Below the pieces are notes generated by a model, which saw only the letters and a list, made by a program, of their open reading frames with translations, had not been told where the DNA came from and did not search any database. A program made the translations under genes and the position numbers. A stretch of 16,210 bases of DNA from Armatimonadota bacterium (GTDB taxonomy: Bacteria; Armatimonadota; UBA10988), in NCBI GenBank assembly GCA_016235455.1, contig JACRKZ010000175.1, positions 1 to 16,210 on the forward strand, given 5' to 3'. Positions within the stretch are counted from its first letter, which is position 1. Each line of letters starts with the position of its first letter. Below, in pieces: positions 1 through 10,622 of this stretch.

Positions 1-1703
1 AACGAATCGGCGGCCTGGGTGGCGTGCTCGGCGGCTTGGCGCGTAGCCTGGCCGAGCTGGTGGACCGTGGTGTTGAGCTGGCCCACCTGCTGCGACTGCG
101 ACTGGGTCTCCGCCACCGCCTCATCGCACCACGCCACCAGCCGCCGCAGGCCATCGATGACCTGGGCCAGGTCGCTGCTGAGCCGTCCGGCGAACTGGCG
201 GCTGTGAGTGGCGTCCGCGCGCGAGCCGTGCAGATGGTCGGCCACCTTGTGCGCCGCGCGCTGCACCTGGCCGGCGAAGTGCGCCATCTGCAGATGGACG
301 TTCTGCTCCATGGTGAGCGACCGGCGGTCGGTGCCTTCGGGTGGCGCGCCGGCCAGCGCCAGGCGCTCGGCTCGCTCGGCCACCTCGGCCACTTGCCGCG
401 CCAGCCGCTCCGCCTCGTCGGCGGCGACGCCGGAGCGCTGCAGGTCCCGGCTCATCTGGTGCATGGCCTCGAACCCGGAGTCCGCGGCCTCGCGCGCCTG
501 CGCCGCCGTGAGCCGGGCCGCGCGCGCCTTCTCAGCGGTCTGCGATGAGACCCGGCCCAGGGCGTGTGCCGAGCCGGTCAGGGCGGTCATGGCGACATTC
601 ACCGTATCGCTGGCGTGCGACAGTTCGCGGCTGGCCGTGGCCATCTGGTAGGACGCGCCGGCGATGGCCTGCGAGGTGCCGACCAGGCTGGCGATGGTCG
701 ATTCGATGGGCTCCGAGACCCGGCCCGACAGCCAGCGGCCGAGGGCCATGGTGGCCGCCATGACCACCAGGCAGATGGCCAGCAACGTGGCCTGAAGCCA
801 GCCGAACGGCGCCATGAGACCATCGATGGGCTGCTCGGTGATGACCACCCAACCGCAGTTCGACTCGTCCGGGCCGGCGCCCACGGGCCACGCCGACACT
901 ACCATCTCTGTCCCGCCGGGGTCGGCGCGGAAGGTGGTCTGCCCATGGCCACGCGCCAGGGCCGGCCGGTCGAGCCCGGACAGCAGCGCCGCCGGCTCCT
1001 TGGTGCTCGGCTGGCCCACCGACGCCAGGAGATGATCGGCGCTGGACAGCACCGCCACACCGCGCACGCTGGCCGGCGGCAGCAGCAACGGCGGCAACTG
1101 CTCGCGGCGGTAGCGCAGCACCAGCACGCCGACCAGTTCGTCGCCCGTGTCGCGCACGACCCGCGCGACACGGTACGTGCCCTCGGCGCCGGTAGCCGGC
1201 TCCTCCGCCGACAGGCTGAAGCCGCGGTCAAAGGTGGCCTTGAGCCAACCAGCCCGTGGGTAGCGCGGCCGCGGCGGCTCGCCCGCGGCCGCCAGCACGA
1301 CCCCGCGCCGGTCCACGGCCCACAGGCTGTCGAGCGACGGCTTGGGTCCATACCGGGCGTGGGTGGCCAGCGCCGCGGTCAACTCGCTCGCCAGCGCGCC
1401 GGAACGTAAACCTGGGCTGACGACGAGATCCGGCCCGCCGTTGTCCGGCACACTGACGGCGGCGGCGGCGCTGCCGAAGGCGCGGCGCAAGTCGGGCAGG
1501 GCGGCCAGCGCCTGTCCGTCGGCCAGCGCGTGACTGACGATCTGCTCGGTCCGAGCCGCCAGTACGGCGGCCGTTTCGCCGGATGCCGCGGCCACGTTGC
1601 GCTCCACGGCCTGGCGGGACACGAGCAGTACTACCAACGCCACTGGCCAGACCGTGACTGCCAGAGCCACCGACAAGAGCAGCACTCGATGGGCCAGCTT
1701 CAT
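1..1703 (-). CDS. Methyl-accepting chemotaxis protein-like receptor (TM1, Cache-like sensor, TM2, MCP coiled coil) with degenerate signalling tip; 3' end runs off the window
   Basis: Absent from the ORF track because no stop lies in the window. Manual translation from ATG 1703 gives MKLAHRVLLLSVALAVTVWPVALVVLLVSRQ (TM1), Cache-like motifs (LWAVDRRGVVLAA; GWVVITEQP), TM2 (LLAICLVVMAATMALG), then MCP-type heptads (SYQMATASRELS...AETQSQSQQVGQLNTTVHQLGQATRQAAEHATQAADS). The + strand ORFs 24-548, 564-1409 and 1530-1712 are its antisense shadows. Confidence 0.85.
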   Translation of the reverse strand, partial: MKLAHRVLLLSVALAVTVWPVALVVLLVSRQAVERNVAAASGETAAVLAARTEQIVSHALADGQALAALPDLRRAFGSAAAAVSVPDNGGPDLVVSPGLRSGALASELTAALATHARYGPKPSLDSLWAVDRRGVVLAAAGEPPRPRYPRAGWLKATFDRGFSLSAEEPATGAEGTYRVARVVRDTGDELVGVLVLRYRREQLPPLLLPPASVRGVAVLSSADHLLASVGQPSTKEPAALLSGLDRPALARGHGQTTFRADPGGTEMVVSAWPVGAGPDESNCGWVVITEQPIDGLMAPFGWLQATLLAICLVVMAATMALGRWLSGRVSEPIESTIASLVGTSQAIAGASYQMATASRELSHASDTVNVAMTALTGSAHALGRVSSQTAEKARAARLTAAQAREAADSGFEAMHQMSRDLQRSGVAADEAERLARQVAEVAERAERLALAGAPPEGTDRRSLTMEQNVHLQMAHFAGQVQRAAHKVADHLHGSRADATHSRQFAGRLSSDLAQVIDGLRRLVAWCDEAVAETQSQSQQVGQLNTTVHQLGQATRQAAEHATQAADS

Positions 1704-1774
1704 GGACTCTAGGGGACTTTCCCGCCGCTTGCAGAGAGCGCCGACAGGGCCATGGAACGTATTGTGTAGAGCGC

Positions 1775-1803
1775 ATTGTAGACGCCGGCGAGGGCGACCG
1801 CAA
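1775..1803 (-). promoter_or_regulatory. Putative sigma70-type promoter of the MCP-like gene
   Basis: Minus strand reads TTGCGG (1803-1798), 17 nt, TACAAT (1780-1775), about 70 nt upstream of ATG 1703. Confidence 0.6.
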
Positions 1804-1819
1804 CCGTTGCCGACAGGAG

Positions 1820-1848
1820 TTGTGCCACCGGCGGGCAGCATGTATACT
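1820..1848 (+). promoter_or_regulatory. Putative sigma70-type promoter of the pilM operon
   Basis: TTGTGC (1820-1825), 17 nt, TATACT (1843-1848); 27 nt upstream of ATG 1876. Confidence 0.6.
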
Positions 1849-1875
1849 GCCCCCGACGAGCAGAGGCAGGTCGTG

Positions 1876-2976
1876 ATGGGCTGGAGGCAGCCGCGCATAG
1901 GTCGCACAACGGGTCCCCTGGGGCTCGATGTCGGCCACCACAGCATCAAGTTGTCGCAGATCGAGCTCGGCCCCGGCGGCCCGCGGCTCGCGGCGCTGGC
2001 CAGTCGGGCAACGCCGCCCGGCGTATTTGATGGCGACGGCTATCTGGTCGATCCCGACAGCCTGGCGGGCGCCCTGCGGGACATGGCCAACGAGTTGGGT
2101 GTCGCCGGCGCTGATGTCGTCGCCGCGCTGTCCACGCCGTCGGCGCACGTGGCGCTGTTGGACGTGCTGGCCGAGCCCGATGGGGATCTGGCCCCGGCCG
2201 CCTGTCAGCAACTTGCCCCGCTGCTCGACTACCCGCTGGATGAAGCCTCCGTGGTGCTGCGGCTGATGCGCACACCGCCGTATAACGCGGTGGAACCGTA
2301 TGCCCCGGCGTACGTCAAGGTACTAGCCTGCGCGATGCCCGCGGCGCTCGTGGTGGCGCTGGAACAGGCCATCGAGTCCGCGGGGCTGGCGCCGTTGGTC
2401 ATTGAGGCCGCGCCGTTGCCCGCGGGCCATCTCCTACTGGGCGATGGCGCCGGCCCGGCGTCGGTGCTGGTGGGCGACCTGGGCGCCACGCAGACGACCT
2501 GGACGCTGTGGCAGGATCTGCTGCCGGTGTTCGTCACCACCTTGCCTCTCGGTGGGCAGGATCTGACCGAAGCCGCGGCTGGGGTACTCGGTGGCGACCC
2601 GGAGGCGGCCGAGGCTTGGAAGCTCAGCGACCCTTGGGACGAGTCCCTGCCCGCCGCCGCGGCGGTGGCGGACCAGTACCTTAAGTCGCTGCTGCAAGCG
2701 ATCAGTGCGCTGGCGCAGCCGGCGGCGGACGGTGCGCATGAGTCGGCGCCACGCTGGCCGATGTCGCTCATCGTGCTGCACGGCGCGGGCGCGTTGCTGC
2801 GTGACCTGGCACCGCGGTTGGCGGAAGCCACGGGTCTGCGGGTGGAGTGGTTGGACGGTTTTGCCCGGCTGGGCATGGGGATCGACGGAAGCCTGCCCAA
2901 CGAGGTCGGGCGATACTTGCCGCAGTGGGCCAACTGCTTGGGTCTGGCCTGGCGACAGTGGGTCGTGGAGGGCTAA
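1876..2976 (+). CDS. pilM: Type IV pilus assembly protein PilM (actin-like/FtsA fold)
   Basis: Motifs LGLDVGHHSIKL, VGDLGATQT, LPLGGQDLTEA, VLHGAGALL..LA..LAEATGLRVE and C-terminal LGLA. Start moved from 1597 to ATG 1876 (GTG 1873 possible), downstream of the promoter and a GAGGCAGG RBS-like stretch. Confidence 0.88.
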   Translation: MGWRQPRIGRTTGPLGLDVGHHSIKLSQIELGPGGPRLAALASRATPPGVFDGDGYLVDPDSLAGALRDMANELGVAGADVVAALSTPSAHVALLDVLAEPDGDLAPAACQQLAPLLDYPLDEASVVLRLMRTPPYNAVEPYAPAYVKVLACAMPAALVVALEQAIESAGLAPLVIEAAPLPAGHLLLGDGAGPASVLVGDLGATQTTWTLWQDLLPVFVTTLPLGGQDLTEAAAGVLGGDPEAAEAWKLSDPWDESLPAAAAVADQYLKSLLQAISALAQPAADGAHESAPRWPMSLIVLHGAGALLRDLAPRLAEATGLRVEWLDGFARLGMGIDGSLPNEVGRYLPQWANCLGLAWRQWVVEG

Positions 2977-3594
2977 GTGCGCGCGCACGCGAACTTCATC
3001 GGCAACCGGGAAGAGCAACGCCGGCGCGAGACACGGATCGCGGGCTGGGCGTTGGCCTTGGCGGTCGCCTTCGGCCTGGCGCCGCTGTTGCTCGTCGGCC
3101 TGATCCGCCAGGGCGCGGCCGAGCGCGCCACGCTGCTCAAAGACATCAACAAGCGCCGTGAGACCGTGCTCAACAACTTGGTCGGCAGTGCTTGGATGGA
3201 GGCCGAGAACAAGCGGCTCGAGCCCGGCCACAAGGTGGTCGTCGCGGCGCACACCAACCTGGCCAAGTGGACCGAGTTGCTCAACGAGGTGCGCGACCGC
3301 CTGCCCGAGGGCGCCTGGCTCACCCAGGTCAGCATCGCCCGCGCCGACTTCGACGCGGCCAAGCCGCTGGTCCCGGGCACCAGCCCACAGACGGTGATTG
3401 TGGTCGGTACCGCCGCCAAAGCCGAAGCGGTGGGTGCCTACCTGGAACAGCTCAATCGGTCGCCGCTGCTGGCTCGCGCCGTGTTGGTGCGCAGCCATCC
3501 CAGCGAGGCCAAACTGGCTACCGCCACCGCGCCTGCCGTGGACTATGAGTTGCGGGCCGAGGTCAAGCAGCCGATCGCGGAGGGCCAGCCATGA
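2977..3594 (+). CDS. pilN: PilN-family pilus assembly protein
   Basis: N-terminal ANFI resembles the PilM-binding INLL motif; single TM, coiled coil, WTELLNEVRDRLPEGAWLTQVSI and VVGTA...VGAYLEQLNRSPLL. GTG directly follows the pilM stop. Confidence 0.88.
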   Translation: MRAHANFIGNREEQRRRETRIAGWALALAVAFGLAPLLLVGLIRQGAAERATLLKDINKRRETVLNNLVGSAWMEAENKRLEPGHKVVVAAHTNLAKWTELLNEVRDRLPEGAWLTQVSIARADFDAAKPLVPGTSPQTVIVVGTAAKAEAVGAYLEQLNRSPLLARAVLVRSHPSEAKLATATAPAVDYELRAEVKQPIAEGQP

Positions 3595-4817
3595 CCTGCT
3601 GGCAACGACGCTACCGGTCCCTGCTCGTGCTCGCCCTGGGCCTGTTCCTGGCCTTGTCCTTGGTCAACCTGGTGCTGCTACGCAGCGCGGTCAGCCGCTT
3701 CCGCAGCGTCACCAAGCGGCTGGTCCAGGAGCGTGCGGCCCAGAAGGAAGAGGATAAGCGCCTCGGCAAGATGGCCGAGCTGCAGGCCAACCACGACACC
3801 ATCTTGCAGGATATCGGCTCCATCGAAGCCACACCCCCACGCCGGCTGTACCAGGCCACGTTGGTGGCGCAACTGGGCCAGTTCGCCGAGCACAGCGCGG
3901 TCACGCTGCTGGGTGTGACGCCCGACAACGGCGGCGCCCCGGTCGAGAAGGGCCTGCCCGAGTTGCCCAAGGATGGACCGTGGCGCTTTGTCGCGGTGTT
4001 CAGCGGGCACTACAACGACGTCGTCAAACTGGTCGACTCGCTCCAGACCTTCCCCAAGGCGGTCGCGGTGCAGTCGGTCAATCTGCGCGTCGACAAGGCC
4101 CTGCGCGACGGCACCATGCGCGCCGAGATCGTGCTTCTGGCGCGCGAGGTGGCCGGCGTGCGCGACCCCGCCACCATGACCACCATCCCCGTACCGCCAC
4201 CGTCCCTGATGGAGCGGTTCGACCACAACACCATTCGCGACTGGCTCAAGAGCCAAGAGCAGCGGCCGCTCGCCGAAGCGCCGGGTCAGCCCGGCCCTGC
4301 GGCGCCCATGCGGCCCGCGCCCAGTCAGCCCGGGCCGAGCAGCATCACGCCAGGAACTCGAGTTCCGCTGGGCGGATCGGCGCAGCCTGGTGGCGCGCCG
4401 CAACCCGGTCGCCTGCCGTTCGCTCCGGGCGCGGCCACCACGGGAGGCGCGGCACCGACCTCGCCGCCGGGCGTGCCGTTTGGCCGCCGGCGGTCACCTG
4501 GCGCAGGTCAGCCGATGCCGCCGCCGGCTGGCTTGCCGCCGGGCTTCGCGCCGGGCGGGCCGTTCGGCGCGCCACCGGCGCCGTCCGGTCACGGTGGGCC
4601 ACCTGGGCCGAGCACGCCGGACATGCTGCCTGGCCTCGGCCAGAGCCTGCTGCCGGACGATATGGCTCCCGCGCGCAGCATGGCGAACGTTGGGGTGGTT
4701 CGGCGGGTATTCAAGATCATGCGCACGGACGGTCTGTTGCCCGGCGGCGGCAAAGCGGTGACCGACGACGGCCGCGTCGCGGCCAACGACATGCCGGCGC
4801 GAGGGAAGACACGATGA
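3591..4817 (+). CDS. pilO: PilO-family protein with a ~200-aa Pro/Gly-rich C-terminal extension
   Basis: TM, coiled coil, LVAQLGQFAEHSAVTL, FSGHYNDVVKLVDSLQTFPKAVAVQSVNL (PilO-like ferredoxin core). ATGA overlap with pilN. Confidence 0.8.
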   Translation: MTCWQRRYRSLLVLALGLFLALSLVNLVLLRSAVSRFRSVTKRLVQERAAQKEEDKRLGKMAELQANHDTILQDIGSIEATPPRRLYQATLVAQLGQFAEHSAVTLLGVTPDNGGAPVEKGLPELPKDGPWRFVAVFSGHYNDVVKLVDSLQTFPKAVAVQSVNLRVDKALRDGTMRAEIVLLAREVAGVRDPATMTTIPVPPPSLMERFDHNTIRDWLKSQEQRPLAEAPGQPGPAAPMRPAPSQPGPSSITPGTRVPLGGSAQPGGAPQPGRLPFAPGAATTGGAAPTSPPGVPFGRRRSPGAGQPMPPPAGLPPGFAPGGPFGAPPAPSGHGGPPGPSTPDMLPGLGQSLLPDDMAPARSMANVGVVRRVFKIMRTDGLLPGGGKAVTDDGRVAANDMPARGKTR

Positions 4818-5707
4818 GCAGCGAGCCCGAAACCACTACCAGTGAGGCCACTCCGGCCACGCCGGTGACCACCGAGCCGCAGCCCTCGCAGCGGCTGGTG
4901 GTGGCGGCGGTGGCTTGCGTCGCCGTCGTCGGCCTCGTATTTCTCGGCTCGGTGGGCGTCTACGCACTGCGACACCTGCGTCCGCACAAGGCGGACACGA
5001 CCGTGGCCATGGCGGCCAAGGCCGTCGACGACGAACCGTCACTGGTCTCCGAGACGCAGACCCAGGACGGTCGCGACCCATTCCTGGCCCAGGGCATCGC
5101 GGCCACGGCGGATACGGCCATCCCGGTGCCGCCCAAGGACCCGACCGGCCCGGCGCCGGTCGTCATTCCGACGCCCTCGGTGGATCCGCCCAAGACCAAT
5201 CCGACGCCGGCCGCCGACCCGCCGAAGCCGACTCCGAGTACCGAAACCAGCAAGCCCGCGGCGCCCAGCAAGCCGGAGAAGCCCAAGGCCCCGAGCCGCG
5301 CCGAGTTGGCCACGCTCGATCCCGCCTCGCCGCCCGATTGGGTGACCGGCCCGGGCGCGGCCGAGGGTTTGGTCCTGATGGGTCTGGTGGCCAGCGGCAA
5401 GCCGCAAGCGGTGTTTGAGTACGAGGGCAAGGTGGTGCGCCGACGCATCGGCGAAGAGGTGGCCGGCATGACCGTCTCGCGCATCGAGCGCGGTCAGGTG
5501 ATGCTGCGCGACGCCAACTCGGGCGGGCCGGTGAAGGCCTTCTGGCTGACGGTGCGCGAGGGCAACCGCCTGGGCGGCACGCGGTCGGGTCCGGTCAAGA
5601 CTGTGACCCCACCGGCGGACAGTACGTCCGAGTCCAGCGGCTCCGGCTCCAGCGGTTCGGAGTCGAGCGGCGACACGAGCGGCGAGGGCAGCAGCGGTGG
5701 TGAGTAA
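4814..5707 (+). CDS. PilP/GspC-like membrane-anchored protein (297 aa) with Pro-rich linker and Ser/Gly/Glu tail
   Basis: ATG 4814 overlaps the pilO stop (ATGA) behind GAGGGAAG. TM (LVVAAVACVAVVGLVFLGSVGVYAL), GRDPF motif, and a PilP/GspC-HR-like domain LVLMGLVASGKPQAVFEYEGKVVRRRIGEEVAGMTVSRIERGQVMLR. Confidence 0.75.
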   Translation: MSSEPETTTSEATPATPVTTEPQPSQRLVVAAVACVAVVGLVFLGSVGVYALRHLRPHKADTTVAMAAKAVDDEPSLVSETQTQDGRDPFLAQGIAATADTAIPVPPKDPTGPAPVVIPTPSVDPPKTNPTPAADPPKPTPSTETSKPAAPSKPEKPKAPSRAELATLDPASPPDWVTGPGAAEGLVLMGLVASGKPQAVFEYEGKVVRRRIGEEVAGMTVSRIERGQVMLRDANSGGPVKAFWLTVREGNRLGGTRSGPVKTVTPPADSTSESSGSGSSGSESSGDTSGEGSSGGE

Positions 5708-5729
5708 GGCAGCAAGTAGAGGACGCGAT

Positions 5730-7478
5730 ATGGCACGGCGATGGTGGATGCTTGGGTTGGCGGCGCTGCTGACACTGCCGACGGCGGTGCCCGGAGCGTG
5801 GGCCGAAGAGGGCGGCGAAAGCAAGCCCAGCGTTGACGTGCCCGACCAGCGGGCGACGGTCAAGCAATGGGCCTGGGCCAAGGACGACAACAACTCGGTT
5901 GTGCGCCTCAGCCTGGTGCTCAACTGGCCCAAGACTGCGGTGCATTCGGAGTGGATCGGCCAGGGCACGTTCGTGGTCACGGTGCCGAACACGGGGCTCA
6001 AGGCCAACGCCGAGCGCAGCATCGTCATCGCTCAGCCGCCCATCGCCGACGTGCTGTTCGGGGTCGGCGCCGAAGCGGCCGACCTGCAGATCCAAGTGCG
6101 CCTGTCCACGCCCAGCAAGTGCCGCGCCTACGTCGTGCCTTCGCAGTACAAGGTGGTGATCGAGGCCGAGTACCCACCGAGCGTGCCGGCCGCGGCCAAG
6201 AACGACGACGAGGAGACCAAGGAGTTCGGCAAGCAGATCATCACCGCCGAGTTCGTTGACACCGACCTGCGGGTCATCGTCGAGGCGCTGGTCAGCCAGA
6301 GCGGCGCCAACATCATGCTGGCGCCCGAGGTGACCGGCACCTACAGCCTGTCGCTCAAGGAAGTCACGCTGATCGACGCGCTGGACAGCCTGTGGGAGGC
6401 GTGGGGCCTGTGTTGGATGAAGCTGCCGGGCAACATTGTCCTGGTCGGCGCCGAGGCTGAACTGGGCAAGCGCGTGGTCGAGGATGGCATCGAGTTGCCC
6501 AGCGGTTGGTCGGTGGCAGACGTGGCTTCCGTGCTGGCCGCCGAGTTCCCCGAGGTGGCGCCGGCACGCGACATGGCCAGCGTCCCCGCCACCGGTCCGC
6601 TGCCCGTGCGCGGCGAACTGCAGTTCGTGGGCAGGGCACGGCGCTGGGTGGCCAAGCTGCCGAGCAAGGCCGAAGGCACTCCGCCGGTGGTGACGCTGCC
6701 GCCGCGCGACAAGCAGACGACGGTCGTCGTGTGGCCGCGGTATCTCTCCTCGGAGACCGCCGAGGCCAAGCTCAAGGAAGTCTATCCACTGCTGACCATC
6801 ACGCGCGAAGTCGAGACCGGCAAGTTGACCCTGTCCGGCAGTCGCGAGCTGGTGAACAGCGCCAAGACCTTTGTGGACAAGCTCGACTTGCTGGAGGTCG
6901 AGACCGTACCGTTCTACCCGCGGTATGCCAAGCTCGACCAGCTCGAGCCCAAGATCAGGGAGAACTACCCGCAGGTGGTGGTGACGGTCGAAGAGAAGCT
7001 GGGCCGCCTGACGCTCAAGGGCCTGGCCGAAGTCGTGGCGGAGGCGCTCAAGTATGCGCAGAGCCTCGACCAGCCCGATCGCGACTCGACCCGTTTCTAC
7101 CCGCGCTACCTCAAGCTGACCGACGCCGAGACGAAGATCAAGGAGATCTTCCCGACGCTGACGGTGCTGTCCGAGGCCGGGCTGGGCTACCTGACGCTGG
7201 TTGGGCCGCGGGACATGGTCGGCGCCGCGCTGCGCTATGTGCAGACTATTGATGTCGTCGTCGACCCGGTGATCGATGAGTACCTGCACTTCCCCGGCAT
7301 GACCGAGGCCAACCTCAAGGGCCTGGTACCCGCCGACGTGACGCTCGAGCGGCAGTCGTCGGGCGCCAAGGGGCTGTACGTCCGGGTGCGAGGCAAGGAG
7401 TCCGCCGTGGCGCCGCTGCGCCGGCTGGCCGCCCAGTTGCAGGAAGACGCGCGCCAGGCACCCAACGGCACCAAGTAA
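5730..7478 (+). CDS. PilQ-position secreted protein with AMIN-like, N0/STN and about five secretin N-domain repeats; no C-terminal secretin domain
   Basis: ATG 5730 with AGAGGA RBS; signal peptide ending AWA-EE; N0 motif IITAEFVDTDLRVIVEALVSQSGANIMLAPEVTGTYSLSLKEVTLIDALD; N-domain repeats with PRY...LTLxG...LD; ends ARQAPNGTK-stop. Confidence 0.8.
   Translation: MARRWWMLGLAALLTLPTAVPGAWAEEGGESKPSVDVPDQRATVKQWAWAKDDNNSVVRLSLVLNWPKTAVHSEWIGQGTFVVTVPNTGLKANAERSIVIAQPPIADVLFGVGAEAADLQIQVRLSTPSKCRAYVVPSQYKVVIEAEYPPSVPAAAKNDDEETKEFGKQIITAEFVDTDLRVIVEALVSQSGANIMLAPEVTGTYSLSLKEVTLIDALDSLWEAWGLCWMKLPGNIVLVGAEAELGKRVVEDGIELPSGWSVADVASVLAAEFPEVAPARDMASVPATGPLPVRGELQFVGRARRWVAKLPSKAEGTPPVVTLPPRDKQTTVVVWPRYLSSETAEAKLKEVYPLLTITREVETGKLTLSGSRELVNSAKTFVDKLDLLEVETVPFYPRYAKLDQLEPKIRENYPQVVVTVEEKLGRLTLKGLAEVVAEALKYAQSLDQPDRDSTRFYPRYLKLTDAETKIKEIFPTLTVLSEAGLGYLTLVGPRDMVGAALRYVQTIDVVVDPVIDEYLHFPGMTEANLKGLVPADVTLERQSSGAKGLYVRVRGKESAVAPLRRLAAQLQEDARQAPNGTK
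6732..7260 (+). repeat. Three tandem ~60-aa secretin N-domain repeats, flanked by two more diverged copies
   Basis: WPRYL (6732), FYPRYA (6912), FYPRYL (7095), spaced 180-183 nt; DNA ttctacccgcggtatgccaagctc versus ttctacccgcgctacctcaagctg. Confidence 0.8.
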
Positions 7479-7511
7479 CAGGCCGCCCGCGCGGCAGGAG
7501 GCAGGGCCCAG

Positions 7512-8840
7512 GTGAATGCTCGACCCGACGATCCGCTGGCGCTGCTCGTTGCGGAGTACCTTCGCACGCGCGACACCGCGGTGCGGGACGAGATTGTGCT
7601 CGCCGCCATCGACCTGGTCGAGCACATCGCGCAGCGCTACCGCTTCGCCGCCGAGCCGGTGGAGGACCTCATCCAGGAAGGCACCATCGGCCTGATCAAC
7701 GCGGTCGAGATGTTCGATGGCAGCCGGGGGGTGAAGTTCACCACTTACGCGTCCCACGCGGTGCAAGGCGCCATCCAGCACTACCTGCGCGACAAGGGCA
7801 AGCTGATCCGCGAGCCGGGCTGGCTACACGATCTCAACCAGAAGATCGGCAAGGCCCGCGGGCGGCTCAACCACACGCTCGGCCGTGAGCCGTCGTCCGC
7901 CGAGTTGGCGGCCGACCTGCAGATGCCCGAGCAGCAGGTGAGCGACGCCCTGGCCACGCGCGGCGTGTTCCGGGTCAGTTCGCTCGAGCAGCCGCAGGGC
8001 GACGAGGGCGACGGTACCTACAGCGTCGTGGAGCACGATGCGGCGCGCGTGGAGCTGCCCGAGAACGCCGAGACCCCCGTGGTGGACCGGCTGGCCATCG
8101 AGGAGGCCCTCGGACGCCTGCGCGCCATGGAGCGGCAGGTCGTGCTCGACTTCTTCTTCAACGACCTCTCCAAGACCGAGATTGCCCGCCGTCTGGGTTA
8201 CTCGTCGAGCCACGTGGCCCATCTGCTGCGGCGCGCGCTCAAGCAGCTCAAGGATGCGTTGATCGTCGATGAGCGCAACCTGGTCCGCCGGCAACTACGC
8301 AGCCTGGAAGGCCAGTTGGCCGACTATGCTCGACGCGTGGAAGAAGAGACGATCCGCGACGACCTGACCGGGCTGTACAACCGACGGTATCTGCTGGACC
8401 GCTTGGATGAGGAGCTGTCACGCTGCCAGCGCTACGGCTTCCTGCTCAGTGTCGTGCTGGTCGATCTCGATGGATTCGAGGCGTATCTGGGCGAGCACGG
8501 TCGCGCCGAGGCGGATCAGGCGCTGATGGCCGTGGCCCGGCTGCTGACAGCGGCCTCGCGTCGCATCGACCGCATCTGCCGCTACGACGAGCGCCGCTTC
8601 CTGCTGCTGCTGCCCAACACCGGTCAACAATCGACGGTGCTGTGTGAGCGCCTCGTCGCCGCCGTCGACGCGCTGGAGCTCGGGCCGGGCGCGGCCGATG
8701 CCGGCCGTATCCGTGCCGTGTGCGGCATCGCTGTCTATCCTCTGGCCGGCGCCGATGCCGACGCGCTCATCGCCGCGGCAAACGACGCGGTGGTTCGGGG
8801 CCGTGCCAGCGGGCAGGGCGTGGTCATTTCGGGTGCGTAG
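7512..8840 (+). CDS. SigB/SigF/SigG-family sigma-70 factor fused to a degenerate GGDEF domain
   Basis: AGGAGG RBS at 7496-7501, GTG start. Region 2 EDLIQEGTIGLINAVEMFDGSRGVKFTTYA..YLRDKG; region 3 LGREPSSAELAADL; region 4 LSKTEIARRLGYSSSHVAHLLRRAL; helical linker; then DDLTGLYNRRY, VVLVDLDGF, RRIDRICRYDERRF, CGIAVYP. Confidence 0.92.
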   Translation: MNARPDDPLALLVAEYLRTRDTAVRDEIVLAAIDLVEHIAQRYRFAAEPVEDLIQEGTIGLINAVEMFDGSRGVKFTTYASHAVQGAIQHYLRDKGKLIREPGWLHDLNQKIGKARGRLNHTLGREPSSAELAADLQMPEQQVSDALATRGVFRVSSLEQPQGDEGDGTYSVVEHDAARVELPENAETPVVDRLAIEEALGRLRAMERQVVLDFFFNDLSKTEIARRLGYSSSHVAHLLRRALKQLKDALIVDERNLVRRQLRSLEGQLADYARRVEEETIRDDLTGLYNRRYLLDRLDEELSRCQRYGFLLSVVLVDLDGFEAYLGEHGRAEADQALMAVARLLTAASRRIDRICRYDERRFLLLLPNTGQQSTVLCERLVAAVDALELGPGAADAGRIRAVCGIAVYPLAGADADALIAAANDAVVRGRASGQGVVISGA

Positions 8841-8909
8841 GCAGCAAATCCAGGGTGTTGTCGCGCGGCGCTTGCGCCATAATGCCTAGTGTGTGGGGAG
8901 AGTCAGGCA

Positions 8910-10622
8910 ATGCGACGTTGGTCTGATCTGATGTACCTCGGCTGGTCGTTGGCCTTGGCCGCGCTGGTCGGCGTGTTGTTGTCCGGCGCCTCCGGCGCCT
9001 GGCTCGGCTGGGCGCTGCTGCCGTTGGCGGCTGGCGTCGTGCTGGGCCGCTGCGCCGAGTTGTCGCGGGCGGAGTCCTTCGCCCATGCCGCGTTCGTGGC
9101 TGCTGGCGTGGCCGCCTTCGGCTCGCTCAGCGATGCCAATCCCGGCGTCTGTGCCGTGCTCGCGGCCGGCTCGCTGCTGACCATGGCTGGCCTGGCGCGC
9201 TGGGGCAACCGCGCCACACGCATCTGGGTGGCGGCGATGGTGCTGCTCATCACCCTGGGTGCCGCGATTGCGCTCAACCGCGCCGTGCCCGGCGCCGCCG
9301 GCCGGCTGGCGGCCGAGCCGAGCCGCGATCTGCCCACCTCGGCCCTGGCCGATCAGCCCGAGATGTTCCTGCCGCTCGACCTCGACGACGCGGGTCGGCG
9401 CGTGGCCTTGTGGTCCATCCTCGACTCCGAGCAGACCGACGATGCACAGTCGATCTGGTCGCTGGACGTCAACGACGGCACGCTGCACAAGGTCTTCCAC
9501 GGCTATCCGCTGCCCCTCCTGGAATGGTCGCCAGCCGGCGATCGCTTGGTCTACCCAGCCTCCGAGAAGCCCTGGGATGAGGGCGCCGTGCCGTTCGGCA
9601 TCCATGTCGGAGCCGCCGCCGGCGGCTCGTCCAAGCGGTTGCCAGCCCCGGCTGATGGCGGCTCCTGGATGTACCCGAGTTGGTCCAAGCAGGGCAATCG
9701 GCTGGGCGTGTGGCGCCTGCCCGAAGCTCCGGAGTTCGGCTCCGTCGGTCCCCTCCGCGACCTACCGCGCAGCTTCGTGCTCTCGCCCGATGGCGGCGAG
9801 CCCACCGAGATCGCCGTCAAGGGCTGCCGGCTCTCGCTGCTCTCGGCCTGGGAGGCCGGCGGCGAGGGCGCGCTGATGATGACCGAGCACGGCATCTACT
9901 TGGTGCGGCCCGATGCCAAGCCCAAGCGGCTGGTCGCCGCCGGCGAGGCGCCGCTAGACCCGTTCCCGATGCCGCTGCAGTCCGGCGTGGCGCAGGATGG
10001 CAAGCACATTGCTTACCTCGAGCTGACCTTCAAGGGCGGCGACATCGACCGCATCGACGTCAACGTGATCGACATGAACGGCCGTGGCCGTGGCGGTATC
10101 GCCAACATCGTGCCGCTGGCCATGGGCTGGTCGGCCGATGGCAAGCTGTTCGCCGCGCTCACCCAGAACCGCCGCGGCGAGTTGCTGGTGAACGTGCTGG
10201 ATCCCGAGACGCGCCGCGTCAAGTCACTGCGCACCGGCCTGAAGCGCACCGACGAGGACTTCCCCTGCCGGCTGAGCGTCAGCCGCGATGGCAAGGTCGT
10301 GGCCATCAACGGCCCGCTCGACAAGGGTGCCATGCTGTCCGTGGCTATGGTGGATCTGACCAGCGGTGAGACCAAGCTGCTGCCCAACTGCCACAATCAC
10401 CTGGCCAGCGGCTGGCGACCTGACGGCTGGCTGGTGGTGAGCGACACGCAGACCGTCTCCGCAGTCTCGCCCGCTGGACAGCGCCAACCGATCTTCGTAC
10501 CGAGCGCCGCGGGCCGGTCCGAGGACCTGTGCTCCACCGCCATGCTGGAGACCACCTTCCGCCAGCCCATCGAGCGGCTGCAAGTGGCCGCCGAGATGGC
10601 CGTGCAACTGGCCCGCAAGTAG
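8910..10622 (+). CDS. Multi-pass membrane protein with C-terminal TolB/PD40-like beta-propeller
   Basis: About five hydrophobic helices in the first ~125 aa, then propeller-blade motifs WSPAGDRLVY, PSWSKQGNRL, QDGKHIAY, WSADGKLFA, SRDGKVVA, WRPDGWLV. ATG 8910 follows GGGGAG. Confidence 0.78.
   Translation: MRRWSDLMYLGWSLALAALVGVLLSGASGAWLGWALLPLAAGVVLGRCAELSRAESFAHAAFVAAGVAAFGSLSDANPGVCAVLAAGSLLTMAGLARWGNRATRIWVAAMVLLITLGAAIALNRAVPGAAGRLAAEPSRDLPTSALADQPEMFLPLDLDDAGRRVALWSILDSEQTDDAQSIWSLDVNDGTLHKVFHGYPLPLLEWSPAGDRLVYPASEKPWDEGAVPFGIHVGAAAGGSSKRLPAPADGGSWMYPSWSKQGNRLGVWRLPEAPEFGSVGPLRDLPRSFVLSPDGGEPTEIAVKGCRLSLLSAWEAGGEGALMMTEHGIYLVRPDAKPKRLVAAGEAPLDPFPMPLQSGVAQDGKHIAYLELTFKGGDIDRIDVNVIDMNGRGRGGIANIVPLAMGWSADGKLFAALTQNRRGELLVNVLDPETRRVKSLRTGLKRTDEDFPCRLSVSRDGKVVAINGPLDKGAMLSVAMVDLTSGETKLLPNCHNHLASGWRPDGWLVVSDTQTVSAVSPAGQRQPIFVPSAAGRSEDLCSTAMLETTFRQPIERLQVAAEMAVQLARK

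Follow-up and report, generated by a model that had tools for sequence, protein, structure and literature searches.

A 16,210-bp stretch of DNA (the window), which is the entire contig C163 (GC ~70%) of G000, the metagenome-assembled genome of an uncultured groundwater bacterium of the Armatimonadota (6.5 Mb, 185 contigs, 93% complete), carries behind pilMNOP a gene for a PilQ-like protein without a secretin domain. Comparison of this gene, pilQ', with its positional orthologs in the sister genera G004 and G005, which have the same gene order and carry the secretin domain PF00263, shows at the level of sequence that pilQ' is derived from a PilQ with a barrel, encoded in a pilMNOPQ operon. By the same comparison the barrel is shown to have been deleted after a module here named R4', the predicted losses being the last N-domains, the gate and the β-barrel. 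On balance, we favor the reading that pilQ', from which the outer-membrane part is gone, encodes a functional periplasmic collar, tethered to peptidoglycan and bound to PilP. In the following, G numbers denote genomes and P numbers relative proteins; G001 belongs to the source genus, G003 to the source family, and G004 and G005 to sister genera within that family.

Domain architecture and integrity of the gene

The initial annotation, made from the DNA alone, had described a signal peptide, an AMIN-like region, N0 and about five N-domains followed by TAA. The same order is seen in the AF2 model of PilQ' (49-row alignment; mean pLDDT 88.5), in which the five are the modules X, R1, R2, R3 and R4' (Table 1) and the C-terminus is a β-α-β-β-α module. 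The N-terminus, MARRWWMLGLAALLTLPTAVPGAWA|EE, was judged by eye to be a Sec-type signal peptide. The best PDB matches to the model in Foldseek are periplasmic domains of PilQ and GspD (4av2, 4e-13; 3jc8 chain Q, 1e-9), with further matches to N0-N2 crystal structures of XcpQ and GspD, and the β-sandwich resembles the B2 domain of Neisseria PilQ (4aqz; 1.1e-4, TMt 0.57). In long orthologs, the homolog of R4' is the module in front of the extra N-domains and the barrel, as found by tblastn of query residues 451-574 against the G004 and G002 genes. R2 and R3 are additional R1-type copies that occur only in the query lineage; in the alignment, the other orthologs have one module there. A complex prediction with three copies of residues 326-582 was run without controls, scored 0.00 and has no bearing on ring formation.

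Profile searches gave the outcome that had been predicted for a protein without a barrel. Pfam reports Secretin_N (3.3e-9, 37.3 bits against a cut-off of 28.2) and a KH-like match in PilQ', and no match to PF00263 at E≤0.01. The NCBIfam models for PilQ, HofQ and GspD match over the N0 part alone (residues 171-248); TIGR02515 reaches 29.6 bits against a cut-off of 284 and covers model positions 4-80 only. A sequence search of the PDB found the N0 domain of Neisseria PilQ (4ar0) at 2.6e-7. Because the defining C-terminal secretin domain was tested for and is absent, PilQ' is not a secretin in the strict sense. The AMIN profile hit that had also been expected did not appear in PilQ' itself with Pfam; the AMIN-like assignment stands on the β-sandwich fold of the model and on weak matches in orthologs (17.1-21.2 bits), of which P0007 (20.8) and P0025 (21.2) exceed the cut-off of 20.5 and P0003 and P0014 fall under it.

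The stop codon could be artificial, the product of a chimeric contig or of an error in sequencing or assembly, in a gene that really runs on into a barrel, and the window is indeed a short (16.2 kb) contig in a 185-contig metagenome-assembled genome. We consider such an artefact exceedingly improbable. The junction is covered by a 10,678-nt Logan contig from run X2 (eight differences and no gaps over positions 5000-9000) and by a 5,293-nt Logan contig from run X1 (five differences and no gaps over 5287-9000), both from runs that may belong to the same study as the window. From a second study, a 412-nt contig of run X4 spans 7107-7518 across the stop with two differences and no gap; in total, contigs of three runs and two studies bridge the stop. 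The proteins P0003 (85% identical, 582 aa) and P0004 (83% identical, 577 aa) end at the same position, so the gene is not a strain-specific truncation, and the sigma factor gene starts 33 nt after pilQ', as behind the full-length genes in G004 and G005. There is no frameshifted remainder, since tblastn with the barrel-bearing P0007 and P0008 matches nothing in the contig past 7445 in any frame, and the next open reading frame (ORF) encodes, as first read, a sigma factor, which also has a GGDEF domain. None of the three situations that the initial annotation had named as fatal to its reading, a PF00263 match in this ORF, a misassembled junction or a barrel in all close orthologs, is found here, P0003 and P0004 being likewise barrel-less. 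We therefore take pilQ' to be a real gene as written.

Long and short forms of the protein

The order pilM, pilN, pilO, (pilP), pilQ, sigma-GGDEF recurs in G004 and G005, where PilQ has 838 aa (P0015) and 736 aa (P0016), respectively; the G002 protein has 935 aa (P0008). Together with P0007, P0014, P0017 and P0021 these make up the long forms (n=7), which have AMIN-N0-X-R1-R4' in common with PilQ' at 36-46% identity and continue with two further N-domains and a secretin domain. PF00263 is matched at E≤0.01 by all seven long forms and by none of ten short ones. Five of the long-form matches lie over the 27.5-bit cut-off (29.4-66.3 bits) and two under it (19.4 and 17.6 bits), and they mostly cover model positions ~4-130 of 169; ordinary secretins in the same genomes score ~120-174 bits. 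The barrel of the long forms is best read as divergent rather than decaying, because its mean pairwise identity among them (45%) is on a par with that of their other domains (38-51%, with N0 at 66%). By eye, the long-form secretin domains are without the stretch before the last strand that ordinary secretins of the phylum have, which we take to be usually of the form VPxLGDxPxxGxLF. The initial annotation missed both the barrel-bearing positional orthologs of three sister genera and the recurrence of the loss.

An exhaustive search of 50%-identity cluster representatives returned 278 matches at E≤1e-3, 15 of them at E≤1e-30, and the best 16 were classified. Six of these representatives are barrel-bearing (P0008, P0014, P0015, P0016, P0017 and P0021), eight are short with a C-terminus that looks complete (P0002, P0005, P0009, P0013, P0018, P0019, P0020 and P0023), and two are fragments or cut (P0006 and P0022). 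Among the short forms, P0013, P0018, P0019 and P0023 end 15-40 residues past R4', like PilQ', while P0009 (G003) is without R1, and P0005 and P0020 (G001) end after R1. The stop codon and the next gene were checked in DNA in G000, G001 and G003 only.

In a maximum-likelihood tree of 20 rows, built on the region in common (query residues 40-325) with the order-level relatives P0029 and P0025 as outgroup, long and short states interleave, with four changes in the best tree and at least two that are forced by strongly supported branches. A single split between seven long and ten short rows is rejected (ΔlnL 39.7, p-AU 0.0024). Given this interleaving and the rejection of the single split, the barrel is, on this tree, taken to have been lost on at least two occasions, and on four in the best tree, with most losses at a single linker. 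Loss is the parsimonious direction because ordinary PilQ-type secretins occur elsewhere in the phylum: four of five phylum-level loci encode ordinary full PilQ-type secretins, and the remaining one is cut off by the end of its locus. On these loci, N0 proteins without a barrel are rejected as a general trait of the phylum. The query clade (P0002, P0003, P0004, P0005, P0006 and P0020) contains no barrel-bearing form and has 95/95 support, with members ~50% identical; P0006, which is apparently cut by a contig end, falls within this clade and was left out of the long and short groups. As an alternative to repeated loss, long and short alleles may have been exchanged between lineages by recombination.

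Retention and possible role of the periplasmic part

Sequence comparison places the remnant under apparent constraint, as it has been kept intact through considerable divergence. P0003 and P0004 are 96-98% identical to PilQ' across N0, 84-85% across the AMIN-like domain, 80-81% across X and 77-85% across each module from R1 to R4', with no indels except in the signal peptide and tail. Two duplications of R1 took place in the query lineage, and AMIN-N0-X is the part that every short form has kept. The listed variants inside the ORF number 13, of which 10 are synonymous. With one exception they fall within codons 1-233, chiefly in codons 132-233, and the whole 4-kb stretch holds 78 further differences beyond those listed. 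A search of metagenome contigs with the PilQ' protein gave 245 pattern matches, none of which was confirmed.

The remnant could instead be decaying, in which case the system is being lost and the truncated gene is functionless, persisting as the loss is recent or as the gene lies inside an operon. Several observations point this way and weigh against a maintained collar. The short forms differ behind module X, with P0005 and P0020 lacking R4' and P0009 lacking R1, and this variation could represent progressive erosion. PilN and PilO of G000 share 31% and 27% identity with those of G004, compared with 48% and 37.5% between G004 and G005, and the adjacent sigma gene has the opposite trend (61% for G000-G004 against 54% for G004-G005); this somewhat higher divergence hints at relaxed or changed constraint on PilN and PilO, from one comparison only. 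In G001, which is of the same genus, pilQ' has a single N module and the neighboring sigma gene is gone, and a second, complete pilMNOPQ cluster on contig C18 of the source genome could cover pilus function. In addition, the listed variants hardly sample the C-terminal repeats, and the stops of P0003, P0004, P0005, P0013, P0018, P0019 and P0023 are known from protein records alone. We nevertheless regard decay as improbable. Three sequences that are 15-17% apart hold 577-582 residues with no internal indel or stop, N0 is nearly invariant among them, and the listed variants are predominantly synonymous. The barrel-less state has been kept throughout the query clade in spite of the divergence noted above, the module duplication postdates the barrel loss, and the truncations fall at a domain linker and not at random places. 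Furthermore, pilM, pilN, pilO and pilP are all open and translationally coupled.

P0020, on contig C134 of G001, has a Gly/Met/Pro-rich low-complexity insert at residues ~140-190, which separates the AMIN-like domain from N0. A comparable stretch, rich in Gly/Met, is present in the C18 PilQ.

In type IVa pilus (T4aP) machines, as worked out in Neisseria and Myxococcus, AMIN binds peptidoglycan, N0 binds the HR domain of PilP, and N1-type modules build rings. For PilQ' as a retained collar, we propose that the protein would be exported by Sec, that its AMIN-like domain would tether it to peptidoglycan, and that its N0 would bind the HR domain of the PilP-like product of the preceding gene. The five N-type modules would oligomerize into a periplasmic collar on the PilM-N-O-P platform. 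The AMIN-N0-X core would then anchor the inner-membrane platform to the wall, which would account for its retention and leave the number of N modules behind it free to vary. Such a machine would have no pore of its own, and the collar would either end blind in the periplasm or dock to a borrowed pore. By analogy with T4aP machines, wall anchoring and PilP binding are the likeliest selected functions, because every short form keeps AMIN-N0-X. A periplasmic role, as the initial annotation had put forward, is the natural reading of a protein without a barrel whose full length is conserved in near relatives and whose pilMNOP operon is intact.

A special case of the collar is an adaptor of the type proposed for rhizobial RhcC1, in which PilQ' would link PilMNOP, via PilP, to a heterologous secretin that supplies the pore. 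There is a precedent in RhcC1, a remnant proposed as a linker in a system whose barrel comes from the Tad-derived RhcC2 (PMC3459982 and PMC4500985), and the genome does offer candidate barrels. A PF00263 scan found four loci. Three are full secretins (the C18 PilQ, the Tad secretin on C102 and the GspD-type secretin on C169), and the fourth is a weak secretin-like orphan gene on C4 (Table 1). However, no secretin gene is linked to the pilQ' operon, and each of the first three belongs to a complete system of its own. Orthologs of the C4 gene occur in five of five family genomes, barrel-bearing ones included, and the presence of this gene is thus independent of barrel loss; as a gene that tracks the loss, it is ruled out. 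BLASTP finds no likeness of PilQ' to the C18 PilQ or to a second barrel-less N0 protein encoded just upstream of it. We therefore judge an adaptor rather unlikely. That PilQ' is one half of a split secretin, as the initial annotation had also suggested, is not supported in the strict sense: each of the four secretin-domain genes encodes more than a barrel, and tblastn with P0007/P0008 finds no cognate C-terminal half in this 93%-complete genome, giving only the C169 and C18 secretins at 24-26% identity. The genome search it had called for thus returned full-length secretins elsewhere, three in number, and no stand-alone barrel.

PilM is encoded on C18 and C163 only, and the genome has four PilB/GspE-like and several PilT-like ATPases; a separate motor set for the pilQ' operon is possible. 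The C18 PilM is present as two ORFs (Table 1), which may reflect a frameshift, a split gene or a large insertion. In G001 the C4 ortholog is in two pieces and shares a contig with pilQ', at a distance of ~5.5 kb.

Gene neighborhood and comparison with known systems

The operon reads pilM-N-O-P-Q', with pilQ' as the fifth gene, and is co-directional, tightly packed and intact. It is read in this way because the product of the fourth gene has an HR-like fold, HR domains being the known partners of secretin N0, with 3oss and 4av2 as solved complexes of such pairs. In the AF2 model of this product, a disordered Pro-rich linker joins a membrane helix to a six-stranded β domain (pLDDT 75-91). Foldseek ranks 1-11 are all PilP or GspC/PulC HR domains (TMt ≤0.74 at 1.9-2.3 Å), with a best E of 5.7e-3 and none that reaches 1e-3. 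The NCBIfam GspC match is weak and below cut-off (2.2e-5), and the other sequence searches returned nothing from the PDB at E≤10, nothing from Pfam and nothing above 0.9 from the ESM Atlas, so that the identification is by fold search alone. The pilO-like ORF, which has no Pfam and no NCBIfam match, has an equivalent at the same place in G004 and G005.

Table 1. Features of the window, and secretin and pilus genes on other contigs of the source genome (contig named in the position column)
Feature	Position	Strand	Description
ORF running off the contig end	3..1949	-	One or two membrane helices, long Ala/Gln-rich helical C-terminal part
pilM-like	1597..2976	+	True start uncertain; PilM_2 3.7e-14; TIGR01175 4.7e-20; PF11104 full-length at 1921-2958
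pilN-like	2977..3594	+	Pfam PilN 1.3e-8, 35.2 bits (cut-off 22.8); abuts pilM stop
pilO-like (by position)	3591..4817	+	One N-terminal membrane helix, globular part, Pro-rich tail; overlaps pilN stop by 4 nt
pilP/GspC-HR-like	4814..5707	+	Membrane helix, Pro-rich linker, β domain at residues 186-246; ATGA (4-nt) overlap with pilO stop
pilQ' (barrel-less PilQ derivative)	5730..7478	+	582 aa including signal peptide; ATG 5730, TAA 7476-7478
Signal peptide	5730..5804	+	Residues 1-25, AWA|EE; read from translation; low pLDDT at 15-31
AMIN-like β-sandwich	5853..6170	+	Residues 42-147; all-β in model
N0 domain	6237..6464	+	Residues 170-245
Module X, family-specific β-α-β-α	6474..6653	+	Residues 249-308; motifs GPLPVRG, ARRWVAKLP; kept in all aligned orthologs
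R1, R2, R3, tandem N1-type β-α-β-β-α modules	6714..7259	+	Residues 329-387, 390-446, 451-510; Pfam Secretin_N, KH-like; model
R4', last β-α-β-β-α module	7269..7457	+	Residues 514-576; model
SigB/F-type sigma factor with C-terminal degenerate GGDEF	7512..8840	+	Regions 2, 3, 4; TIGR02980 5.8e-51; PF00990 1.6e-27
577-aa ORF	8889..10622	+	Several N-terminal membrane helices, β-rich soluble domain, read by eye
Secretin, GspD type	C169		1,136 aa; N0 and four Secretin_N; type II secretion system (T2SS)-like cluster with GspG, GspK, PilN-domain protein
Secretin, RcpA type	C102		762 aa; Tad cluster with RcpC, response-regulator/ParA-type ATPase, TadA, two T2SSF proteins
Secretin, PilQ without AMIN domain	C18		642 aa; second pilM..pilQ cluster
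Second barrel-less N0 protein	C18 71206-72096	-	296 aa; signal peptide, STN/N0, Gly/Asn-rich low-complexity tails; just upstream of the 642-aa secretin
PilM as two ORFs	C18 75126-77294	-	326 aa (PilM_2 1-236); 378 aa (245-339) behind long acidic low-complexity stretch
Secretin-like gene	C4 42170-43645	-	491 aa, divergent; adjoins two multihaem cytochrome genes; Secretin_N 26 bits, PF00263 23.6 bits, below cut-off

The sigma-GGDEF gene lies directly downstream of pilQ in G003, G004 and G005. In the window, the gap between pilQ' and this gene contains AGGAGG and no plus-strand terminator-like site, and the two are probably co-transcribed. The GG[DE]EF signature of the fusion reads YDERRF, with an RxxD-like RRID five residues upstream; the active site looks degenerate from these residues, and the protein could be a putative c-di-GMP-sensing sigma factor. 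The product of the 577-aa ORF that follows has no Pfam or NCBIfam match, and with its membrane helices and soluble β-rich domain it is ruled out as a replacement pore; it adjoins pilQ' in G001 too, at 62% identity. At the other end of the window, the C-terminal part of the minus-strand product resembles by eye a chemoreceptor signaling domain, with no Pfam match at E 0.1.

The usual view of secretins is of single-chain units whose N-domains do no more than lead to the pore. Recurrent loss at the same linker, together with apparent constraint in an intact pilMNOP operon, points instead to a task of the AMIN-N0-N modules that needs no barrel; they may anchor the machine to the wall, help to assemble the platform or dock to another pore. 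With long and short orthologs available as matched sets, such a role of secretin N-domains can be tested. A broader proposal, which we put forward tentatively and regard as somewhat doubtful, is that collar and barrel are separable modules in this Armatimonadota family and that PilMNOP-PilQ' works confined to the periplasm and anchored to the wall, or with a borrowed pore. If true, this would amount to a natural experiment in which the PilQ N-domains are seen to function independently of a barrel.

With the PilQ of T4aP machines (Neisseria 4av2/4ar0/4aqz, Myxococcus 3jc8, Pseudomonas 6ve2), PilQ' shares the signal peptide, a B2-type, AMIN-like β-sandwich, N0 and N1-type modules, its place after pilM, pilN, pilO (by position) and pilP, and a PilP-type partner. 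Unlike these proteins it has no N3-secretin-barrel part, and hence no outer-membrane channel or gate, and it has the family-specific module X and four tandem N modules. The ExeA-ExeB pair serves as a peptidoglycan-anchoring scaffold in the T2SS. In the role proposed here, PilQ' would resemble the T2SS scaffold GspB/OutB, which ties its machine to the wall and the inner-membrane platform (PMC9239104). Both scaffolds are unrelated to PilQ' in sequence and architecture and serve a machine that has a secretin.

A limited full-text literature search found no barrel-less PilQ that keeps only the periplasmic part in a diderm, which does not prove its absence from print. According to Denise et al. 2019 (PMC6668835), type IV filament systems commonly lose the secretin when they adapt to monoderms, and co-option of secretins from one system by another is frequent; there the loss concerns the whole gene, whereas that of PilQ' is partial.

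To our knowledge, RhcC1 of a type III secretion system (T3SS) is the only well-known natural N-terminal secretin remnant. In the rhizobial T3SS, the original secretin shed a large C-terminal part and the remnant RhcC1 stayed in the cluster, as described in PMC3459982; it is proposed there and in PMC4500985 to link SctD to the Tad-derived secretin RhcC2, which gives the barrel. RhcC1 (NolW) and PilQ' are both N-terminal secretin remnants without the secretin domain, and both have kept the ancestral position in the gene cluster of their machine, which for PilQ' is seen in the synteny with G004 and G005. Both also retain the domain that contacts the inner-membrane ring partner, for RhcC1 according to PMC3459982. 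The two differ in their machines, a T3SS for RhcC1 and a pilMNOP type IV filament operon for PilQ'. RhcC1 is a much shorter remnant, the first N-domain alone being named in PMC3459982, whereas PilQ' has gained extra modules. Its system has the replacement barrel RhcC2 from Tad; for PilQ', none was identified among the four unlinked secretin-domain genes. The loss in PilQ' appears, unlike that in RhcC1, to have recurred several times in one family. RhcC1 is the closest precedent for PilQ', alike in logic and realized in another machine.

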